Notes: generated by a model from the sequence alone, not told the origin. A DNA stretch of 64,000 nt from a virus (IMGVR_UViG_3300043775_001610:32001-96000), one strand, 5' to 3'. Shown: positions 34,851 to 59,086, counted from the first letter of the stretch. Translations and numbers: made by a program.

Positions 34851-37800
34851 ATGGGAATATATAGAAAAACAACTCCATCATCTTATCCAAATACACCAGC
34901 ATCAAATTTTACAGATTCTTCAAAACATTGGCGCAAGCATAAAAATATGTATAGAAGGACTAGCGATAACGAAACAGCTAGTTTAACTACAGTTCCAGGA
35001 AGATATACGGATGACACGAGATCCTGGAGAAGAATTAGAGCCTTATACAGATTTACTTCTTCTGGAACATGGCAAAAGATCTTTGGTAAATTTGCTGGAC
35101 AGCCATATCCTGAGACCTCCGCTTCAATAAGGTATGATAGTTATACTGGTACAGTAGTAGGCGACTTTGCAGAGATGGGGCCTGGATCTACATCTATTGC
35201 TCAAGGAAGTACTGCTACAACATTTTTGTGGGGAAGAGATGGTCAAGATTGGCAGAATATTGAGACCCTTGCTTCAAGAAGCAGAACTTTTGTGCAGGCT
35301 AGCACTCCTGTTGCGGAAACGGCACAACCTATTACAAATGACGAAGGAAACTTTGATGGAGACAAGCTAAGAAATAGTGAATCTGTAATTTTACAATATG
35401 ACGGAAAGTATGTTTGGTACAGAGACAGAATTACATTATCAAATGGATCAACTGGAACTTCATATAGCCAGCCAGTTAGAATTATTAAGCAGCAACCAGT
35501 TATTAACAATTTAGCATTTAAAACAAATAATGATGTTTCAGCAGGCGAAAGAAAAGATGTATCCTTTTCTATTGCAAATCAATGGTACAGATCTATTGAC
35601 AAAACTAATTCTATGTTTAGATGGTATATATTAGATAGTCAATATGAAACTCCTACACAATCTAAATTGTGGAACTCAACATCTGTATCTTCTGTTATAT
35701 TAACTGAAAATACTACTGTTCTTACAGGAGAAGATTTTTTTACAATACCAACAACATTTGGTGGAGTATCTACAACTGGCAAATGGCTTCATGTTGAATT
35801 AAGATTAAAAAACTCATCATCAGATACTGATCTTGATTATGCATTAGCTCCATACAATGATGTCACAGACTATGTAGTTGCACAAATTGGTGCAAGTATG
35901 CCTTCATTTACATATTCTTTAACTAATATAAGTTCTGTAACCACTCCATCTGCGCCTGTCCAGCAGAGGGTATCTACAACATCAAATACTGTGCTTGTTG
36001 AGATGGGTTCATCGTTTCCTTCTGATACAGAGTCTTATGAGCTTTGGAGTTATGGAGCTGGATCATCAGCTGGAGGAACTTTAGCAAATCCATCTGTTCA
36101 AACGGTATCAACTTTAAATCAGTATAACTCTTCAGGAAACTTTGTTCCAACTGGAGGTTCATTTGATACGGTTACAGGCATATCTTCTACAGCATCAAAT
36201 TCTCCAATAAGTACATTTACTAAAGCAATTGGAACATCTAGAGCACTTCGTTTTAACGTTAGCTCAACATCTGGAGCTCAGAGCTGGAAAATAAATTATA
36301 CAATATCTGGAGCATCTAGCGGTAATGGTACATTTGCACTAAACACAAATTCTATGCCAGCATCAATTACAATATCTGGTGCTGCTAACCCTACCGTAAC
36401 AATAACTGGTGTAACAGCATATTCTGATTTAAATCAGATGGGTACCACTAAAGCAGGAACCGTAGGATCTCAAGTCTCTTTATCAACTATAACAAAGCCT
36501 GTTGCCTTTTCTACCACAGCTACATCTAACTACACTTTTTATACAAACGTTCAAGTTACTGGGTCTAAAAGAAGAGTAACCCTTCCTTCAGTATTTAATT
36601 CAGGAACGACTATCTATGTTTCAACTAATGGGTATATTAACTGGGGAGGATCATCACTTCCTGAAGCAGAACGAGGTATTTCTATATCCATACCAGCGCT
36701 TGACAATTCTGGAATAACAATAGCACCACTAAATGGAGATTTAAGGCAGGGTGCAGTTTCAGCTACTTCAAACACATCAACTGGAGGCCTATGGTATTTT
36801 TCAGACGCTTCTAATTTCTGGGTAACTTGGTGGGGAAATTACTACCAGGATGCAGCACAAGTTGCAAGGTATCAAGTTAAATTTTATTGGGGAAGCAACG
36901 TTGCTGATGTATATATTGTAAATAATAGTTTAACTACAATCACACCAAGTACAACTGCAGTCCAAAATAATACAAGCCAATATCAGAGCTGGTCTGATAC
37001 AACAGTACAAGATTCCGTCCTACTATCAACTGCAACTATGAATAGAGTTTCAACTCAAGATGGAGCTGATGACAACAGAACAGTAATTGTGGCATCTCCT
37101 CCAGTTTTAACATGGACTGTTACATGGGATGCCGCTGGTGGAGAAGGTGGTACGCAATTTACAACACAAAATAGAGGCCTTTCTCACACAGCTCCTTCTC
37201 CAGGTGACAGAGATGGTTTTAATTTTGTCAGCTATCGTTATCCAGCAAGCGGTGGAACAGATCCAGTATTTGTTGGATCAGGAGGAAGCTATACTCCAAC
37301 ATCAAGTGTTACATTTGGAGCCATATGGGCAACAAAAACATATTCGGTTTCTTACAATGCAAACCTAGGCACTGGTGCCCCATCACCTCAAACTAAAACT
37401 CACGGAGTTGCATTAACATTAAGCTCTACAACTCCAACTCGTTCAACAGTTGGAAACACTTCTTATGCTTTTAACGGATGGAACACTGCATCCGATGGAA
37501 CTGGAACTAACTATTCTGCTGGAGGATCATATACTGCAAATGCTGCAGTTATTTTATATGCTAAATGGACCGCTACTACTACAGAATCTGCCACAAAACT
37601 TGCAACACCAACAGGAGTATCTGCTTCTAGAACCTTTACAGACAAAATTCGTATTAGTTGGAATGCTGTCTCAAATGCTTCTAGCTACGGGGTTTGGTAC
37701 AGAGGTGGCGCCCCTTCATACAACAATGTTCCAGATTTTCCAACTACAACAGGGCTGTATCTTGACGACACTTCTGTCGGATCTGGCGTAGAGCGTGAAT

Positions 37801-38430: not shown

Positions 38431-38655
38431 ATGACAACAACACTAACTAATATAGAAAAAAAATCTATTATTGACCAGGCTATTAAGCAGCTAGACTACT
38501 CTATTTATGCTTCTGAAATAGAAGTTATTCAGATTTCGGCTGTAACGCCAAGAGACCAAGAGCAGTTTGATGCTTATACGGCAAGAATTGCAAATCTAAA
38601 TGCCAAGAGATCAGCTCTTGTCGCAGAAGAATTACTATTAACAGAAGAGGAATAA
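38431..38655 (+). CDS. Small coiled-coil protein
   Basis: Strong GGAGG RBS. Confidence 0.6.
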   Translation: MTTTLTNIEKKSIIDQAIKQLDYSIYASEIEVIQISAVTPRDQEQFDAYTARIANLNAKRSALVAEELLLTEEE

Positions 38656-55414: not shown

Positions 55415-55647
55415 GTATATATCAAGAAAAAGCTAAAGAGTGCAAGTGCTGCAGCAAGCATGTGCCTCTACCTACAAGGCTTAAGGAGTATTCTGGAATA
55501 CTAGTCTGCCCAACAACATTCGACAATATACATGAGTATAGAAGAGTTTGGTCGGAAATTGGGAAAAGACCTCCAGGCAGCATAAGAAAACATTTTTCAG
55601 AGTATGTTCAGGACATAGTTGAAAAGTCTATTGACAAAACTGATTAA
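55411..55647 (+). CDS. Small Cys-containing hypothetical protein
   Basis: CKCC...CP. Confidence 0.5.
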   Translation: MSIYQEKAKECKCCSKHVPLPTRLKEYSGILVCPTTFDNIHEYRRVWSEIGKRPPGSIRKHFSEYVQDIVEKSIDKTD

Positions 55648-55660
55648 TAAATACTATAAT
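55631..55660 (+). promoter_or_regulatory. Promoter TTGACA-N18-TATAAT
   Basis: Perfect consensus boxes upstream of tRNA. Confidence 0.75.
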
Positions 55661-56220: not shown

Positions 56221-56757
56221 ATGAAAACAGTAGGAGATAAGTTAGGAAATTTTGCAGTTACTGGTGTTAAGCCAGGAGCTTTGTCATATGAAGATTCCTC
56301 TTTTGAGGTAATTACACAGGATTCGTTCCCAGGTAAATGGAAGGTTATTGCATTTTATCCAAAAGATTTTACATTTGTATGCCCAACAGAGATTGTTGCT
56401 TACGATGCTTTAGTTAATGACTTTAACGATAGAGATGCTGTCTTGATGACTGGATCAGTGGACAATGAGTTCTGTAAAATTGCTTGGAGAAATGCCCACG
56501 AGGACCTAAAGAAGACTAATTCATGGTCATTTGCAGATACAGCACACCATTTGGCTAATGATCTTGGGGTTCAACACTCTTCTGGTGTAACTTACCGTGC
56601 CACATTTATTGTTGATCCAGACAATATTATTCAGCATGTTACAGTAAACAACCTAGATGTAGGTAGAAACCCAGATGAAACTCTTCGTGTTCTAGATGCT
56701 TTGCAAACAGGAGAGCTGTGTGCATGTAATCGATCACTAGGTGGAGAAACTTTGTAA
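56221..56757 (+). CDS. ahpC: Peroxiredoxin AhpC
   Basis: FYPKDFTFVCPTE; GRN; C-terminal LCACN. Confidence 0.95.
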   Translation: MKTVGDKLGNFAVTGVKPGALSYEDSSFEVITQDSFPGKWKVIAFYPKDFTFVCPTEIVAYDALVNDFNDRDAVLMTGSVDNEFCKIAWRNAHEDLKKTNSWSFADTAHHLANDLGVQHSSGVTYRATFIVDPDNIIQHVTVNNLDVGRNPDETLRVLDALQTGELCACNRSLGGETL

Positions 56758-57269
56758 TGTTGTGGGTTGACCAGCTAAAAGATTCCTTGCCAGAGTATGC
56801 TAAAGACATTAAGTTAAACCTAGATGCTGTAATCAACAGGTCAACTATTGATCCAGAGCATGCAACATACCTTTCTATTGCTGCAGCATTTGCTACAGGA
56901 AACTCTAAGCTACTTACTTTTATTGTCGCTAGCGCCACAGATGAAGTTGAAAAAAATGCAGCTTTAACGGCAGGAGCCATAATGGCTCAAAACAATGTAT
57001 GGTATCCATTCATTGAAATGGCAGACGATCAAAATCTAAAAGGCTTGCCAGCACAGCTAAGAATGAATTCAATTGCTTCTCATGGTGGAACAACAAAAGG
57101 AAAGTTTGAAGCTTACTCTCTAGCATCATCAATTATTGGCAAATGTCATTTTTGTGTTAAAGCACATTATGAAACATTGAAAGAAGAAGGATACACAGTT
57201 GAGCAGTTGCGTGATATCGGAAGAATTGCAGCAACAATTAATGCGTTAGCAAAGATCCTTTCGGCTTAA
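56757..57269 (+). CDS. ahpD: Alkylhydroperoxidase AhpD
   Basis: LPEYAKDIKLNL, MAQNNVWY, CHFCVKAH. Confidence 0.9.
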   Translation: MLWVDQLKDSLPEYAKDIKLNLDAVINRSTIDPEHATYLSIAAAFATGNSKLLTFIVASATDEVEKNAALTAGAIMAQNNVWYPFIEMADDQNLKGLPAQLRMNSIASHGGTTKGKFEAYSLASSIIGKCHFCVKAHYETLKEEGYTVEQLRDIGRIAATINALAKILSA

Positions 57270-57272
57270 TGC

Positions 57273-57300
57273 AAGTCCTTGGTATGACTTAAAACTACCA
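57273..57300 (+). ncRNA. Candidate H-type RNA pseudoknot (copy 1)
   Basis: AAGTC/GACTT and TGGTA/TACCA stems; covaries with copy 2. Confidence 0.55.
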
Positions 57301-57304
57301 GCTT

Positions 57305-57377
57305 TGCCCTATAGCTCAGTTGGTAGAGCGTCGAACTGTTAATTCGAATGTCCCTGGATCGAGGCCAGGTGGGGCAG
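57305..57377 (+). tRNA. tRNA-Asn (GTT)
   Basis: TGCCCTA/TGGGGCA acceptor; TCGAA-CTGTTAA-TTCGA; atypical T loop ATCGAGG. Confidence 0.85.
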
Positions 57378-57378
57378 C

Positions 57379-57451
57379 GCTCCTATAGCTCAGCTGGTAG
57401 AGCAGCAGACTTTTAATCTGCGGGTCGATGGTTCGATACCATCTGGGGGCA
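57379..57451 (+). tRNA. tRNA-Lys (TTT)
   Basis: GCTCCTA/TGGGGGC acceptor; GCAGA-CTTTTAA-TCTGC; GTTCGAT. Confidence 0.9.
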
Positions 57452-57474
57452 CAATAAAATGATTGGATAATGAT

Positions 57475-58143
57475 ATGAAAAAAGCAATTGTTACAGGTGT
57501 AAGTGGCGGTGTAGGAAACCTGCTTGCTCATACGCTATGCAATAATGGTTATTTTGTTATAGGAACATCAAGAAATCCAGAAGCAATAAAGAATCTAAAC
57601 CATGAAAATATCAAGGTAGAACGACTGGACCTTTTAGATGAGGAAAGTATAAATAGTTTTTATAATAGGTATAAGGATGAAGCAATAGATCTAATTGTAA
57701 ATAATGCATCATGCGCTGGAATTGATGGTGCTAAACATTTGTCTTCAGAAACTCCTAAAAACTTTTTGCATTCATATATGGTTAATGTTGCTGGCCCAAT
57801 GTATTTGTCAAAACTTTTTATACCCAACCTAAAAAAATCTGATAACGCTACAATCATATTTATATCCTCATTTGCAAAAAAACATTTCTATGCTGGTGGA
57901 GGAAACTATGCCACCTCAAAGCTGTCAATATCTGGACTTGCAAAACTATTTAGGCTGGAGCTATCTCATTTTAAGGTAAAGGTTACAGAAATATGTCCAG
58001 CAGCAATTAATACCCATCAACATAATGATGGGGCGTTGGAAGCAGAAGATATAGTAGATGCTATATTGTGGATCAGCAAATTACCTCAGAGATGCAATAT
58101 AGACCTTATTGAGATATCACCTTCTATTGTTTCGCAGGGCTAG
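57475..58143 (+). CDS. Short-chain dehydrogenase/reductase
   Basis: TGVSGGVG, NNA, YATSK. Confidence 0.85.
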   Translation: MKKAIVTGVSGGVGNLLAHTLCNNGYFVIGTSRNPEAIKNLNHENIKVERLDLLDEESINSFYNRYKDEAIDLIVNNASCAGIDGAKHLSSETPKNFLHSYMVNVAGPMYLSKLFIPNLKKSDNATIIFISSFAKKHFYAGGGNYATSKLSISGLAKLFRLELSHFKVKVTEICPAAINTHQHNDGALEAEDIVDAILWISKLPQRCNIDLIEISPSIVSQG

Positions 58144-58211
58144 ATGTGATATAATTATAAAGGCTGCCAAATGGGGCCTAAATTAAATTATTCGCTTGAA
58201 AGGGGAATAAA

Positions 58212-58628
58212 ATGGTAACTACAACACTGGATCTTTTTAGAGATCCATTTTTTATTGGCTTTAATCGTGAGTTGGAAAGAATGGCACATGTTCATCAAAT
58301 AGCAACACGCCAAACATATCCACCGTATGATGTATTAAAGCTAGATGAGGATACCTTCCAGGTATCAATTGCAGTAGCTGGTTTCACAAAAGAAGATATA
58401 GATGTATCAGTAGAAAATGGTACACTTATCGTTAAGGGTGAAATCACAGAGGTGACCGACGGCGAGTACCTGCACAAGGGTATTGCTGCACGTAAATTCA
58501 CACGAACATTTGCTTTGGGTGAGTATATGGAAGTCATTGGGGCAAGTATTGAAGATGGAATGCTTCATGTAAATGTAGAAAGAATCATTCCAGAAGAAAA
58601 AAAGCCTAAAAAAATTAAAATTAAATAA
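58212..58628 (+). CDS. Small heat-shock protein (Hsp20/IbpA-like)
   Basis: YPPYDV, AVAGF, YLHKGIAARKF, DGML. Confidence 0.9.
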   Translation: MVTTTLDLFRDPFFIGFNRELERMAHVHQIATRQTYPPYDVLKLDEDTFQVSIAVAGFTKEDIDVSVENGTLIVKGEITEVTDGEYLHKGIAARKFTRTFALGEYMEVIGASIEDGMLHVNVERIIPEEKKPKKIKIK

Positions 58629-58631
58629 ATC

Positions 58632-58660
58632 AATGACCTGAGCATGTCTTTAAACTGCTC
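58632..58660 (+). ncRNA. Candidate H-type RNA pseudoknot (copy 2)
   Basis: GAC/GTC and GAGCA/TGCTC stems; overlaps anti-SD CTCCT. Confidence 0.55.
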
Positions 58661-58675
58661 CTTAAATTAGGAGGA

Positions 58676-59086
58676 ATGATGTTCGAGTACTATGTAAAAA
58701 AAGTCAGCAAGGTCGTAGATGGAGACACTATAGATGTCGATATCGATCTAGGCTTTGATATTTCATTTAGCTCTAGAGTTAGATTGGCTGGCATAGATAC
58801 TCCAGAAAGTCGTACTACTGATAAAATGGAAAAAGCTTTAGGGCTAGAAGCAAAAGCATATTTAAAGAATGCAATTGACTCAGCTAAAACTGTTGTTATT
58901 AAAACAGAAAAAATGGACTCATCAGAAAAATATGGTCGCATTTTGGGTTGGGTTTTCTTGGACGGATCAGATAAATCTATTAATGAAAAAATGATTGAAG
59001 ATGGTCATGCATGGGGCTATATGGGAGAAACAAAGATTAAAGACTTTGATGCATTAGCAAAAGCAAGGAAGAAAAGCGGGAAGTAA
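58676..59086 (+). CDS. Thermonuclease (SNase) family nuclease
   Basis: VVDGDT, RLAGIDTPE, KYGRIL. Confidence 0.9.
   Translation: MMFEYYVKKVSKVVDGDTIDVDIDLGFDISFSSRVRLAGIDTPESRTTDKMEKALGLEAKAYLKNAIDSAKTVVIKTEKMDSSEKYGRILGWVFLDGSDKSINEKMIEDGHAWGYMGETKIKDFDALAKARKKSGK

Follow-up and report, generated by a model that had tools for sequence, protein, structure and literature searches.

In the -1 frameshifting pseudoknot of the luteovirus BWYV, a first stem (S1) of about 5 bp is combined with a 2-nt first loop (L1) that starts with C, a single extruded U at the junction, and an A-rich last loop that lies in the minor groove of S1. REP elements and the intergenic C(UUCG)G hairpins of phage T4 are small stable structures repeated after operon genes; the role ascribed to them is to halt 3' exonucleases and so give the segments of a message different stabilities. 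ToxI-type antitoxin RNAs form a tandem array of ~36-nt repeats beside a gene for a ToxN-like endoribonuclease. In beny-, cucumo- and other eukaryotic RNA viruses, the coremin motif (GUCCGAAGACGUUAAACUAC) has four parts: a short hairpin whose loop reads YGAD or YGNNAD, a spacer of conserved sequence, a pseudoknot between loop and spacer, and a second hairpin, hp2 (PMC10520033, PMC10321173). Coremin is equivalent to xrRNA-C and has a Watson-Crick variant, xrRNA-WCC (PMC6546385, PMC10520033, PMC10321173). Hairpin hp2 is strictly required for Xrn1 resistance (PMC10321173); xrRNA-WCC, which pairs GAG with CUC(A), still stalls ribosomes without it (PMC10520033, PMC10321173). Phages and bacteria go unmentioned in both of these papers. 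The locus described here carries a small pseudoknot that resembles the luteovirus, preQ1-I and coremin elements in build and differs from each of them in sequence, context or carriers.

Four copies in one viral genome

The window, by which we mean the whole 64,000-nt stretch of DNA analysed, comprises bases 32001-96000 of a single 110,252-bp contig of 37.8% G+C. We found that this genome contains a total of four copies of an H-type pseudoknot of 26-28 nt, two in the window and two outside it on the minus strand. Each copy has helices P1 and P2, loops L1 and L3, and a junction U. The copies and their neighbours are as follows.

56757-57269, plus strand: AhpD-like gene of the CMD family (PF02627, E 1.1e-8), with its TAA stop at 57267-69, 3 nt ahead of copy 1 P1 and 7 nt ahead of CCU
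57273-57300, plus strand: pseudoknot copy 1, AAGTC-CT-TGGTA-T-GACTT-AAAAC-TACCA (covariance-model score 30.3 bits, E 1.3e-5)
57273-77/57286-90, plus strand: copy 1 P1, 5 bp
57278-79, plus strand: copy 1 L1, CU
57280-84/57296-300, plus strand: copy 1 P2, UGGUA/UACCA
57285, plus strand: copy 1 junction U
57291-95, plus strand: copy 1 L3, AAAAC
57305-57378, plus strand: tRNA-Asn, starting 4 nt past copy 1
57379-57452, plus strand: tRNA-Lys
58212-58628, plus strand: Hsp20 gene (PF00011, E 8.3e-21), with its TAA stop at 58626-28, 8 nt ahead of copy 2 CCU, the modal distance of the family
58635-58660, plus strand: pseudoknot copy 2, with CU, U and AAAC as in copy 1 (42.1 bits, E 1.8e-8)
58635-37/58646-48, plus strand: copy 2 P1, GAC/GUC, 3 bp
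58638-39, plus strand: copy 2 L1, CU
58640-44/58656-60, plus strand: copy 2 P2, GAGCA/UGCUC, the canonical P2 type
58645, plus strand: copy 2 junction U
58649-55, plus strand: copy 2 L3, UUUAAAC
58658-58673, plus strand: alternative hairpin CUCCU/AGGAG, overlapping the last 3 nt of the copy 2 P2 3' strand
58676-59086, plus strand: staphylococcal-nuclease-like (SNase) gene (PF00565, E 5.7e-18), downstream of copy 2
C1:1281-1308, minus strand: pseudoknot copy 3, AATTC CT GAGCA T GAATA AAAAC TGCTC; DUF932 gene upstream, stop-to-CCU 11 nt; tRNA-Asp downstream, 13 nt past the knot
C1:2811-2838, minus strand: pseudoknot copy 4, ACGAC CT GAGTA T GTCGC CAAAC TGCTC, with one G-U pair; 140-aa ORF upstream, stop-to-CCU 12 nt; a hairpin and then an 84-codon ORF downstream

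An earlier note on this DNA had proposed an H-type pseudoknot at copy 1, and the sequence confirms it, with both helices at the positions listed. For copy 2, which the note had placed at 58632-58660, P2 and the loops stand, but the long P1 does not: the helix has only 3 bp, and the outer two pairs hold a U-U mismatch. The proposed link to stress genes proved incidental, as the other two copies follow the DUF932 gene and the 140-aa ORF. All four copies lie on the sense strand, shortly after a stop codon, and are dispersed singletons 1.3-88 kb apart. With no tandem array beside a toxin gene, and with AhpD, Hsp20, DUF932 and SNase as neighbours, they do not fit the ToxI-like decoy that the note had also entertained.

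A covariance model built from 150 family members, with all four genome copies in the training set, retrieved exactly four copies from the whole genome at 30-43 bits, with a runner-up at 11 bits; since the training set held all four, only the gap to the runner-up is informative. The bare skeleton CCT-N5-TG-N5-AAAC occurs three times in the window, against 0.51 expected, and both helices pair only at the two reported sites. At the skeleton match 34981-34999 (minus strand) pairing fails, and a candidate fifth copy at 38558-38584 of the window (minus strand) was rejected because it carries AAACUGCUC but its loop has no partner strand. A generic scan for the pseudoknot shape, without the loop letters, gave ~25 chance matches in the genome, indicating that the signal lies in the conserved letters together with pairing and that shape alone is uninformative. 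The nested-only folding energies of the four copies were unremarkable (z -0.04 to -2.3; ViennaRNA, with the pseudoknot itself left out of the score), and the stability of the knot would therefore have to come from putative tertiary contacts. No close relative was found among 50,697 GenBank phages, in which only tRNA and nuclease fragments matched.

Consensus, covariation and spread of the family

The consensus of the family is NNN-C / CU / NNNNA / U / G-NNN / NN-AAAC / U-NNNN, followed by A in 62% of copies. P1 has 3-5 bp (mode 4) and is closed by C-G, P2 has 5 bp and is usually GAGCA/UGCUC, and loop lengths of 2, 1 and 5-6 nt over 5- and 4-bp helices fit classical H-type geometry. The closing C-G, the CU, the junction U and the AAAC were fixed by the search pattern, and the invariance of the closing C-G is therefore not a test; the U following AAAC is more than 90% conserved.

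We assessed P1 in 134 unique viral instances gathered without any P1 condition. At the two positions adjoining the closing C-G, Watson-Crick pairs made up 134/134 and 133/134 and drew on all four pair types; the third position was paired in 112/134. When the partner strand was slid by 1-3 nt or permuted, pairing dropped from 94% to 31-43%. A fifth P1 pair, as proposed for copy 1, is no family feature: 102 of 149 members leave it unpaired. For P2, we re-collected instances without a P2 condition and obtained 224 unique copies, 182 with GAGCA/UGCUC and 42 non-canonical, frequencies that are biased because canonical P2, or the P2 of copy 1, served as the seed for collecting instances. All five pairs were kept in 37 of the 42 non-canonical variants, among them GAGUA/UGCUC, UGGUA/UACCA, AAGCA/UGCUU, GGACA/UGUCC, GGGCG/CGCCC and AGGCA/UGCCU. 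P2 was 99.1% paired, with two-sided changes at all five pairs. In alignment A2, 90.7% of cells were paired, compared with 73.6% in shuffles and 26-44% in slid controls; the covariation score was 0.488 versus 0.161, and 0 of 500 shuffles scored as high, although many loci are homologous and counts and p-values thus overstate independence. G-U pairs, which become A-C mismatches on the opposite strand, are common on the sense strand, identifying the sense strand as the folding strand. These data demonstrate that the pseudoknot fold is selected, with both helices supported by covariation. The compensatory changes in both stems on which the earlier note had relied are upheld and extend far beyond this genome, and the search for further homologs with covariation that it had called for succeeded, clearly the opposite of an outcome that would count against a selected structure.

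To measure the spread of the family, we scanned for the exact pattern CCTGAGCATG-N4-7-AAACTGCTC, in which the canonical P2 is fixed. The pattern is present in at least 120 IMG/VR viral contigs and in at least 119 contigs of a set of prokaryotes with one genome per species. The prokaryotic matches listed include many from Saccharibacteria, Firmicutes, Chloroflexi and Bacteroidota and a few from archaeal MAGs, and the MAG contigs among them may really be phage DNA. The carriers are diverse: phages of actinobacterial, firmicute, cyanobacterial and Bacteroidota hosts, elements of Saccharibacteria, and some archaeal contigs, with Mycobacterium phage Labelle (Patiencevirus), Arthrobacter phage Molivia, Nostoc phage NMeng1 and Synechococcus phage S-EIVl among the cultured ones. 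We argue that such diversity favours a target in the universal machinery over a single phage protein. The P2 variant of copy 1 (TGGTA/TACCA) occurs in 12 viral contigs, 8 of them relatives with the same ahpD-knot-tRNA-Asn order and 4 with unrelated contexts and a different P1. A slightly different form of the knot matched in 85 Staphylococcus phage records. In the one record opened, that of phage vB_Sau_IS1, the variant knot (L253, 1200-1226), with L1 CUU or with P2 UAGCA/UGCUU of 4 bp, belongs to the late operon: it lies 12 nt past a stop, with the minor-head-protein gene on one side and the scaffold gene on the other. Early and accessory genes are thus not the only sites of the family. Matches in Pseudomonas were set aside as probable coding coincidence, as they share one context, pair weakly in P1 and have no upstream stop.

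In the bacterial contigs, the gene ahead of the knot often encodes DUF3768, DUF7249 or DUF932, which we take to be typical of mobile elements. Saccharibacteria contribute about a quarter of the prokaryotic matches listed, and a conserved element in this group (L135, L168, L216, L219, L228) carries two knots ~580 nt apart: a DUF7249 gene is followed by a knot with P2 GAGCA/UGCUC, and a DUF3768 gene by one with P2 GGGCG/CGCCC, in which C rather than U follows AAAC. In Nocardia nova (L179, 6639-6692) two knots stand in tandem, 2 nt apart, one with P2 GAGAG/CUCUU and one canonical.

In agreement with the earlier note, which could assign the structure to no named family, Rfam 15 gave nothing at the knots, whether at the gathering score on the window or at E<=10 on 57000-59000, and text searches on the sequence or on xrRNA in bacteriophages returned no published description. 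For the structured-RNA catalogue this is a gap: an RNA of 26-28 nt that covaries strongly and recurs across hundreds of unrelated phages and mobile elements is absent from Rfam and from the literature searched.

Likeness to known pseudoknots

The -1 frameshifting pseudoknots of luteoviruses (BWYV, PLRV and PEMV-1; 28 nt) follow nearly the same blueprint as the phage knot, and lie 5-8 nt past the A-site codon. They stand 5-8 nt behind a slippery heptamer, where two ORFs overlap, and give rise to a -1 fusion product. The phage knot, however, follows a stop codon and not a slippery heptamer, has 5 bp in place of the 3 bp of S2, occurs in many copies per genome and comes without a consistent -1 or +1 extension: past the stop, the median open length is 9 codons in the -1 frame and 5 in the +1 frame. 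We therefore rejected recoding by frameshifting or readthrough, as there are no consistent extended frames and the open frame past the stop has a median of 5-13 codons.

The preQ1-I riboswitch (RF00522) is another H-type pseudoknot of minimal size: in ~30 nt it combines a P1 of 5 bp with an A-rich tail, which ends in AAAC-U and folds back to pair with the loop. It lies in the 5' leader of queuosine/preQ1 genes, whereas the phage knot lies 3' of unrelated genes, and identity of the two was rejected: Rfam gave no match, and the ligand-recognising loop is replaced by one U. It is very unlikely that the knot binds a protein, such as a regulator or processing nuclease, or a small ligand, in the manner of a riboswitch-like aptamer, or that it is an antitoxin of the ToxI kind. 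Ligand binding is known for small pseudoknots, preQ1-I among them, and the loop letters and P2 sequence (GAGCA/UGCUC in 182/224) are unusually conserved for a purely structural element; yet P2 varies with compensation, no Rfam riboswitch matches, the genes ahead of the knot are unrelated, its hosts span many phyla, and it has neither a tandem array nor a single linked neighbour gene. The one-U junction, which leaves no pocket-forming loop, and the many unrelated upstream genes likewise lend little support to the ligand-binding element suggested in the earlier note.

Coremin and the phage knot both have a short hairpin closed by C-G (3-4 bp in coremin, a P1 of 3-5 bp in the phage knot), a C as first loop nucleotide, and a spacer ending in AAAC and then U. 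Both measure ~20-28 nt, lie after ORFs or between genes and occur in many unrelated viruses, and the Watson-Crick variant shares with the phage knot a GAG/CUC pairing followed by A. The loop of the phage knot, however, has 8 nt (CU-NNNNA-U; canonical CU-GAGCA-U) and is neither YGAD nor YGNNAD: when it was tested against the coremin consensus, the first Y and the last A-D fitted, but the obligatory G at position 2 is U. The coremin spacer measures 8-10 nt (...UUAAACUAC) and touches the loop with its 3' portion; the phage knot has NNAAAC-U, its AAAC being fixed by the search pattern. The rest of the phage spacer forms a 5-bp Watson-Crick helix, its register one nucleotide off that of xrRNA-WCC, and the phage P2 has five Watson-Crick pairs and a one-nucleotide junction U rather than three pairs or non-canonical contacts. 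We found no excess of hp2 after phage knots, with a hairpin 0-3 nt downstream in 30/259 copies compared with 45 in a window shifted by 25 nt and 23 in shuffled sequence, and in this genome only copy 4 has an hp2-like hairpin. Furthermore, the phage knot is carried by dsDNA phages and mobile elements of prokaryotes, which lack Xrn1, and its context suggests a tie with the gene upstream and not a shield for RNA downstream. Judged from sequence, the phage knot appears coremin-like in build and not a member of that class: its loop fails the consensus, and hp2 is no family feature.

Position relative to genes and candidate functions

We found knots inside a sense ORF in only 8 of 163 copies. Among 173 copies, the distance from stop to CCU (D) was below 8 nt in only 9, exactly 8 nt in 41, 9 nt in 20 and between 10 and 12 nt in 27, a distribution with a sharp lower bound at 8 nt and a long tail, while the distance from the knot to the next start codon was broad (20-40 nt and beyond). 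ORFs were called crudely, as at least 40 open codons, and on this definition 86 of 259 unique copies have no ORF ending within 50 nt upstream. The sharp stop distance, the broad start distance and the rarity inside ORFs together indicate that the knot is attached to the upstream ORF. The genes ahead of knots are unrelated, and include those for AhpD, Hsp20, DUF932, DUF3768, DUF7249, head proteins and DNA polymerase.

From the observed fold, copy number, distribution and positions relative to stops, starts, tRNAs and promoters, we tentatively favour a reading in which the knot, mechanically stable and independent of proteins, would cap the upstream cistron at its 3' end, although we would put it somewhat short of an even chance; the triple-helix geometry, the nuclease block and the direction of that block are inferred. 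Under this model, the knot would act in cis within polycistronic phage messages. Its conserved loop letters (the first C of L1, the single junction U and the AAA of L3) would probably lock the two short helices by base triples, in the arrangement solved for the BWYV knot. Belonging to the preceding gene and lying just beyond the footprint of a terminating ribosome, it could stay folded on a translated message. The message would be cut downstream of the knot, by RNase P at an adjacent tRNA or by RNase E, Y or J in a G-poor, A/U-rich stretch, and the knot would then halt 3'-to-5' exonucleases and leave a defined, stable 3' end on the upstream cistron, a gene-boundary cap that would need no phage-specific protein. 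The 10 nt past the knot are in fact G-poor (5-12% G), with A at +1 in 62% of copies, and appear to form an unstructured landing or cutting zone. Intercistronic stabilisers of the REP and C(UUCG)G type are simple hairpins, whereas the phage knot is a pseudoknot conserved in sequence across phyla. Of the functions listed in the earlier note, a 3'-end stabiliser or processing signal is the best fit to the context (upstream stop, tRNAs behind, inside operons), and is plausible if still somewhat doubtful.

Several observations weigh against a 3'-end cap. No upstream ORF lies near 86/259 unique copies, the instance set is pattern-biased with homologous loci and crude ORF calls, and the stability of the knot depends on putative tertiary contacts, its nested energies being unremarkable. 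In S. aureus siphophages, protecting the highly expressed downstream genes would make more sense. Finally, coremin, the closest relative studied by experiment, blocks a 5'-to-3' enzyme and not a 3'-to-5' one (PMC6546385, PMC10321173).

The main rival, which we consider unlikely, is a translation insulator or termination aid: the knot would abut the mRNA entry channel and wall off ribosomes that miss the stop, or post-termination 70S or 30S particles sliding into the next cistron or tRNA, and would so uncouple the translation of neighbouring genes. At D=8, P1 starts 5-6 nt past the stop; from the extent of the mRNA channel when a stop codon occupies the A site, such a knot would sit just outside the channel of the terminating ribosome. 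This modal spacing is also the geometry of pseudoknots that stimulate frameshifting or readthrough. In addition, the leaky stop UGA is depleted ahead of knots, where TAA, TAG and TGA number 75, 35 and 12, compared with 611, 275 and 408 for sense-strand ORFs of the same loci (TGA 12/122 versus 32%), and TAG is enriched. The depletion could stem from selection for tight termination beside a ribosome obstacle, but could also come from gene class or shared ancestry. Watson-Crick coremin without hp2 resists ribosomes, with 30% frameshifting, and coremin blocks scanning ribosomes (PMC10321173, PMC10520033). On the other hand, in half of the copies that have an ORF nearby, 13-49 nt separate the knot from the stop, beyond the reach of the terminating ribosome, and a sharp minimum with a long tail is the pattern of a structure that merely avoids the ribosome.

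We found a knot at 16 of 74 ORF-to-tRNA junctions, 4-13 nt ahead of the tRNA, but at none of 68 tRNA-to-ORF junctions (Fisher p = 1.5e-5). At the former, RNase P cutting would leave the upstream message ending in the knot, as a 3'-end cap predicts; the lack of knots after tRNAs argues against a protector of downstream RNA, which would be expected there too. These counts bear on a further possibility, which we regard as quite unlikely: a coremin-like 5'-to-3' roadblock that stalls RNase J or 5'-end-dependent RNase E scanning and protects the next gene or tRNA, as xrRNA-C does against Xrn1 in eukaryotic RNA viruses. The 5'-monophosphate entry site for such enzymes arises at tRNA-to-ORF junctions, where 0/68 have a knot, and the position of the knot is tied to the upstream stop and not to the downstream start. 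In its favour are the features common to coremin and its Watson-Crick variant (C-G-closed hairpin, leading loop C, AAAC-U, GAG/CUC(A)) (PMC10321173), the position ahead of scaffold and capsid genes in the S. aureus phage, and the hairpins of differing sequence that directly follow copy 4 and its orthologue in L093. However, the loop misfits YGAD/YGNNAD, and hp2, without which neither coremin type resists Xrn1 (PMC10321173), is not enriched after phage knots.

A promoter/terminator scan placed copy 1 inside the predicted unit tRNA-Arg-ahpC-ahpD-[knot]-tRNA-Asn-tRNA-Lys-SDR and copy 2 inside the predicted unit hsp20-[knot]-nuclease; by inspection, copies 3 and 4 likewise lie within transcription units. 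All four are flanked by co-oriented genes or tRNAs that leave neither space nor a sequence match for a promoter, and no terminator-like site was found at any of them. The gap between copy 1 and the two tRNAs contains no promoter-like site, so both tRNAs would be transcribed through the knot. As tRNAs and genes directly behind knots lack a promoter of their own, polymerase must read through, which argues against an efficient terminator. We give little credence to a leaky intrinsic terminator or pause element, in which P2, locked by P1, would serve host RNA polymerase as a terminator hairpin and grade transcription across gene boundaries. Runs of at least four T within 10 nt past the knot are commoner than in a control window (49/259, 19%, versus 10/259, 4%), and copy 3 is followed by ACAA-UUUUUU. 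Still, 81% of copies lack a T run, including copies 1, 2 and 4, where the terminator scan also finds nothing, and a 5-bp P2 with an 11-12-nt 'loop' is a weak hairpin. A full Rho-independent terminator was rejected at copies 1 and 2, which have no G+C-rich hairpin followed by a U tract. Elsewhere in the window, a perfect TTGACA-18-TATAAT promoter match at 55631-55660 lies immediately ahead of tRNA-Met; in the ARAGORN output, tRNA-Asn and tRNA-Lys abut with zero spacer (57378/57379).

If the knot does cap message ends, it would explain the differing stabilities of neighbouring genes on one phage transcript and how phages join protein genes to tRNA genes; it would also provide a cheap annotation marker of gene ends and strand, and a very small, host-independent insulator or stabiliser for synthetic biology. 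In a broader reading, possible but on the doubtful side, a portable 'mechanical stop' RNA that needs no protein would be common to phages and other mobile elements of prokaryotes, in bacterial phyla and some archaeal ones. It would be a prokaryotic counterpart of the coremin/xrRNA knots of eukaryotic viruses, and its resistance to exonucleases and/or ribosomes would set the ends of messages and the boundaries of genes. The same minimal pseudoknot would then have emerged, or been passed on, among viruses of every cellular domain. Because the phage knot resembles coremin, knots that resist nucleases and ribosomes can be compared across kingdoms in direct tests, and cultivable carriers exist in Mycobacterium phage Labelle, Arthrobacter phage Molivia and S. 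aureus siphophages.

At copy 2, the Shine-Dalgarno of the SNase gene (ATG at 58676) lies 8 nt past the knot, and gene and knot belong to one predicted transcription unit. The hairpin at 58658-58673 sequesters this Shine-Dalgarno and is mutually exclusive with P2; the nested minimum-free-energy fold consists of this hairpin and P1, in preference to P2. An anti-Shine-Dalgarno switch is thus real at copy 2, but was rejected as the function of the family: the C it requires at +1 is present in only 11% of members, making the hairpin a local feature. Related viral contigs have the same arrangement of P2 and Shine-Dalgarno hairpin as copy 2.

Copy 4 is directly followed by the hairpin UCCC-UUUU-GGGA (L001, 2810-2797, minus strand), and its orthologous site in L093 by ACACC-UUCG-GGUGU, the structure being kept while the sequence has changed; this coremin-hp2-like arrangement is confined to the copy 4 locus. 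In the same region (L001, genome C1:1-8000), a promoter-region module is repeated ahead of early genes, at ~2520-2340 and ~1200-1100 of the minus strand; it reads CAAAGCTAAGGGG ... GTTACGAC ... CCCTGGAA ... AATGTCAG and contains TGTCAG boxes.
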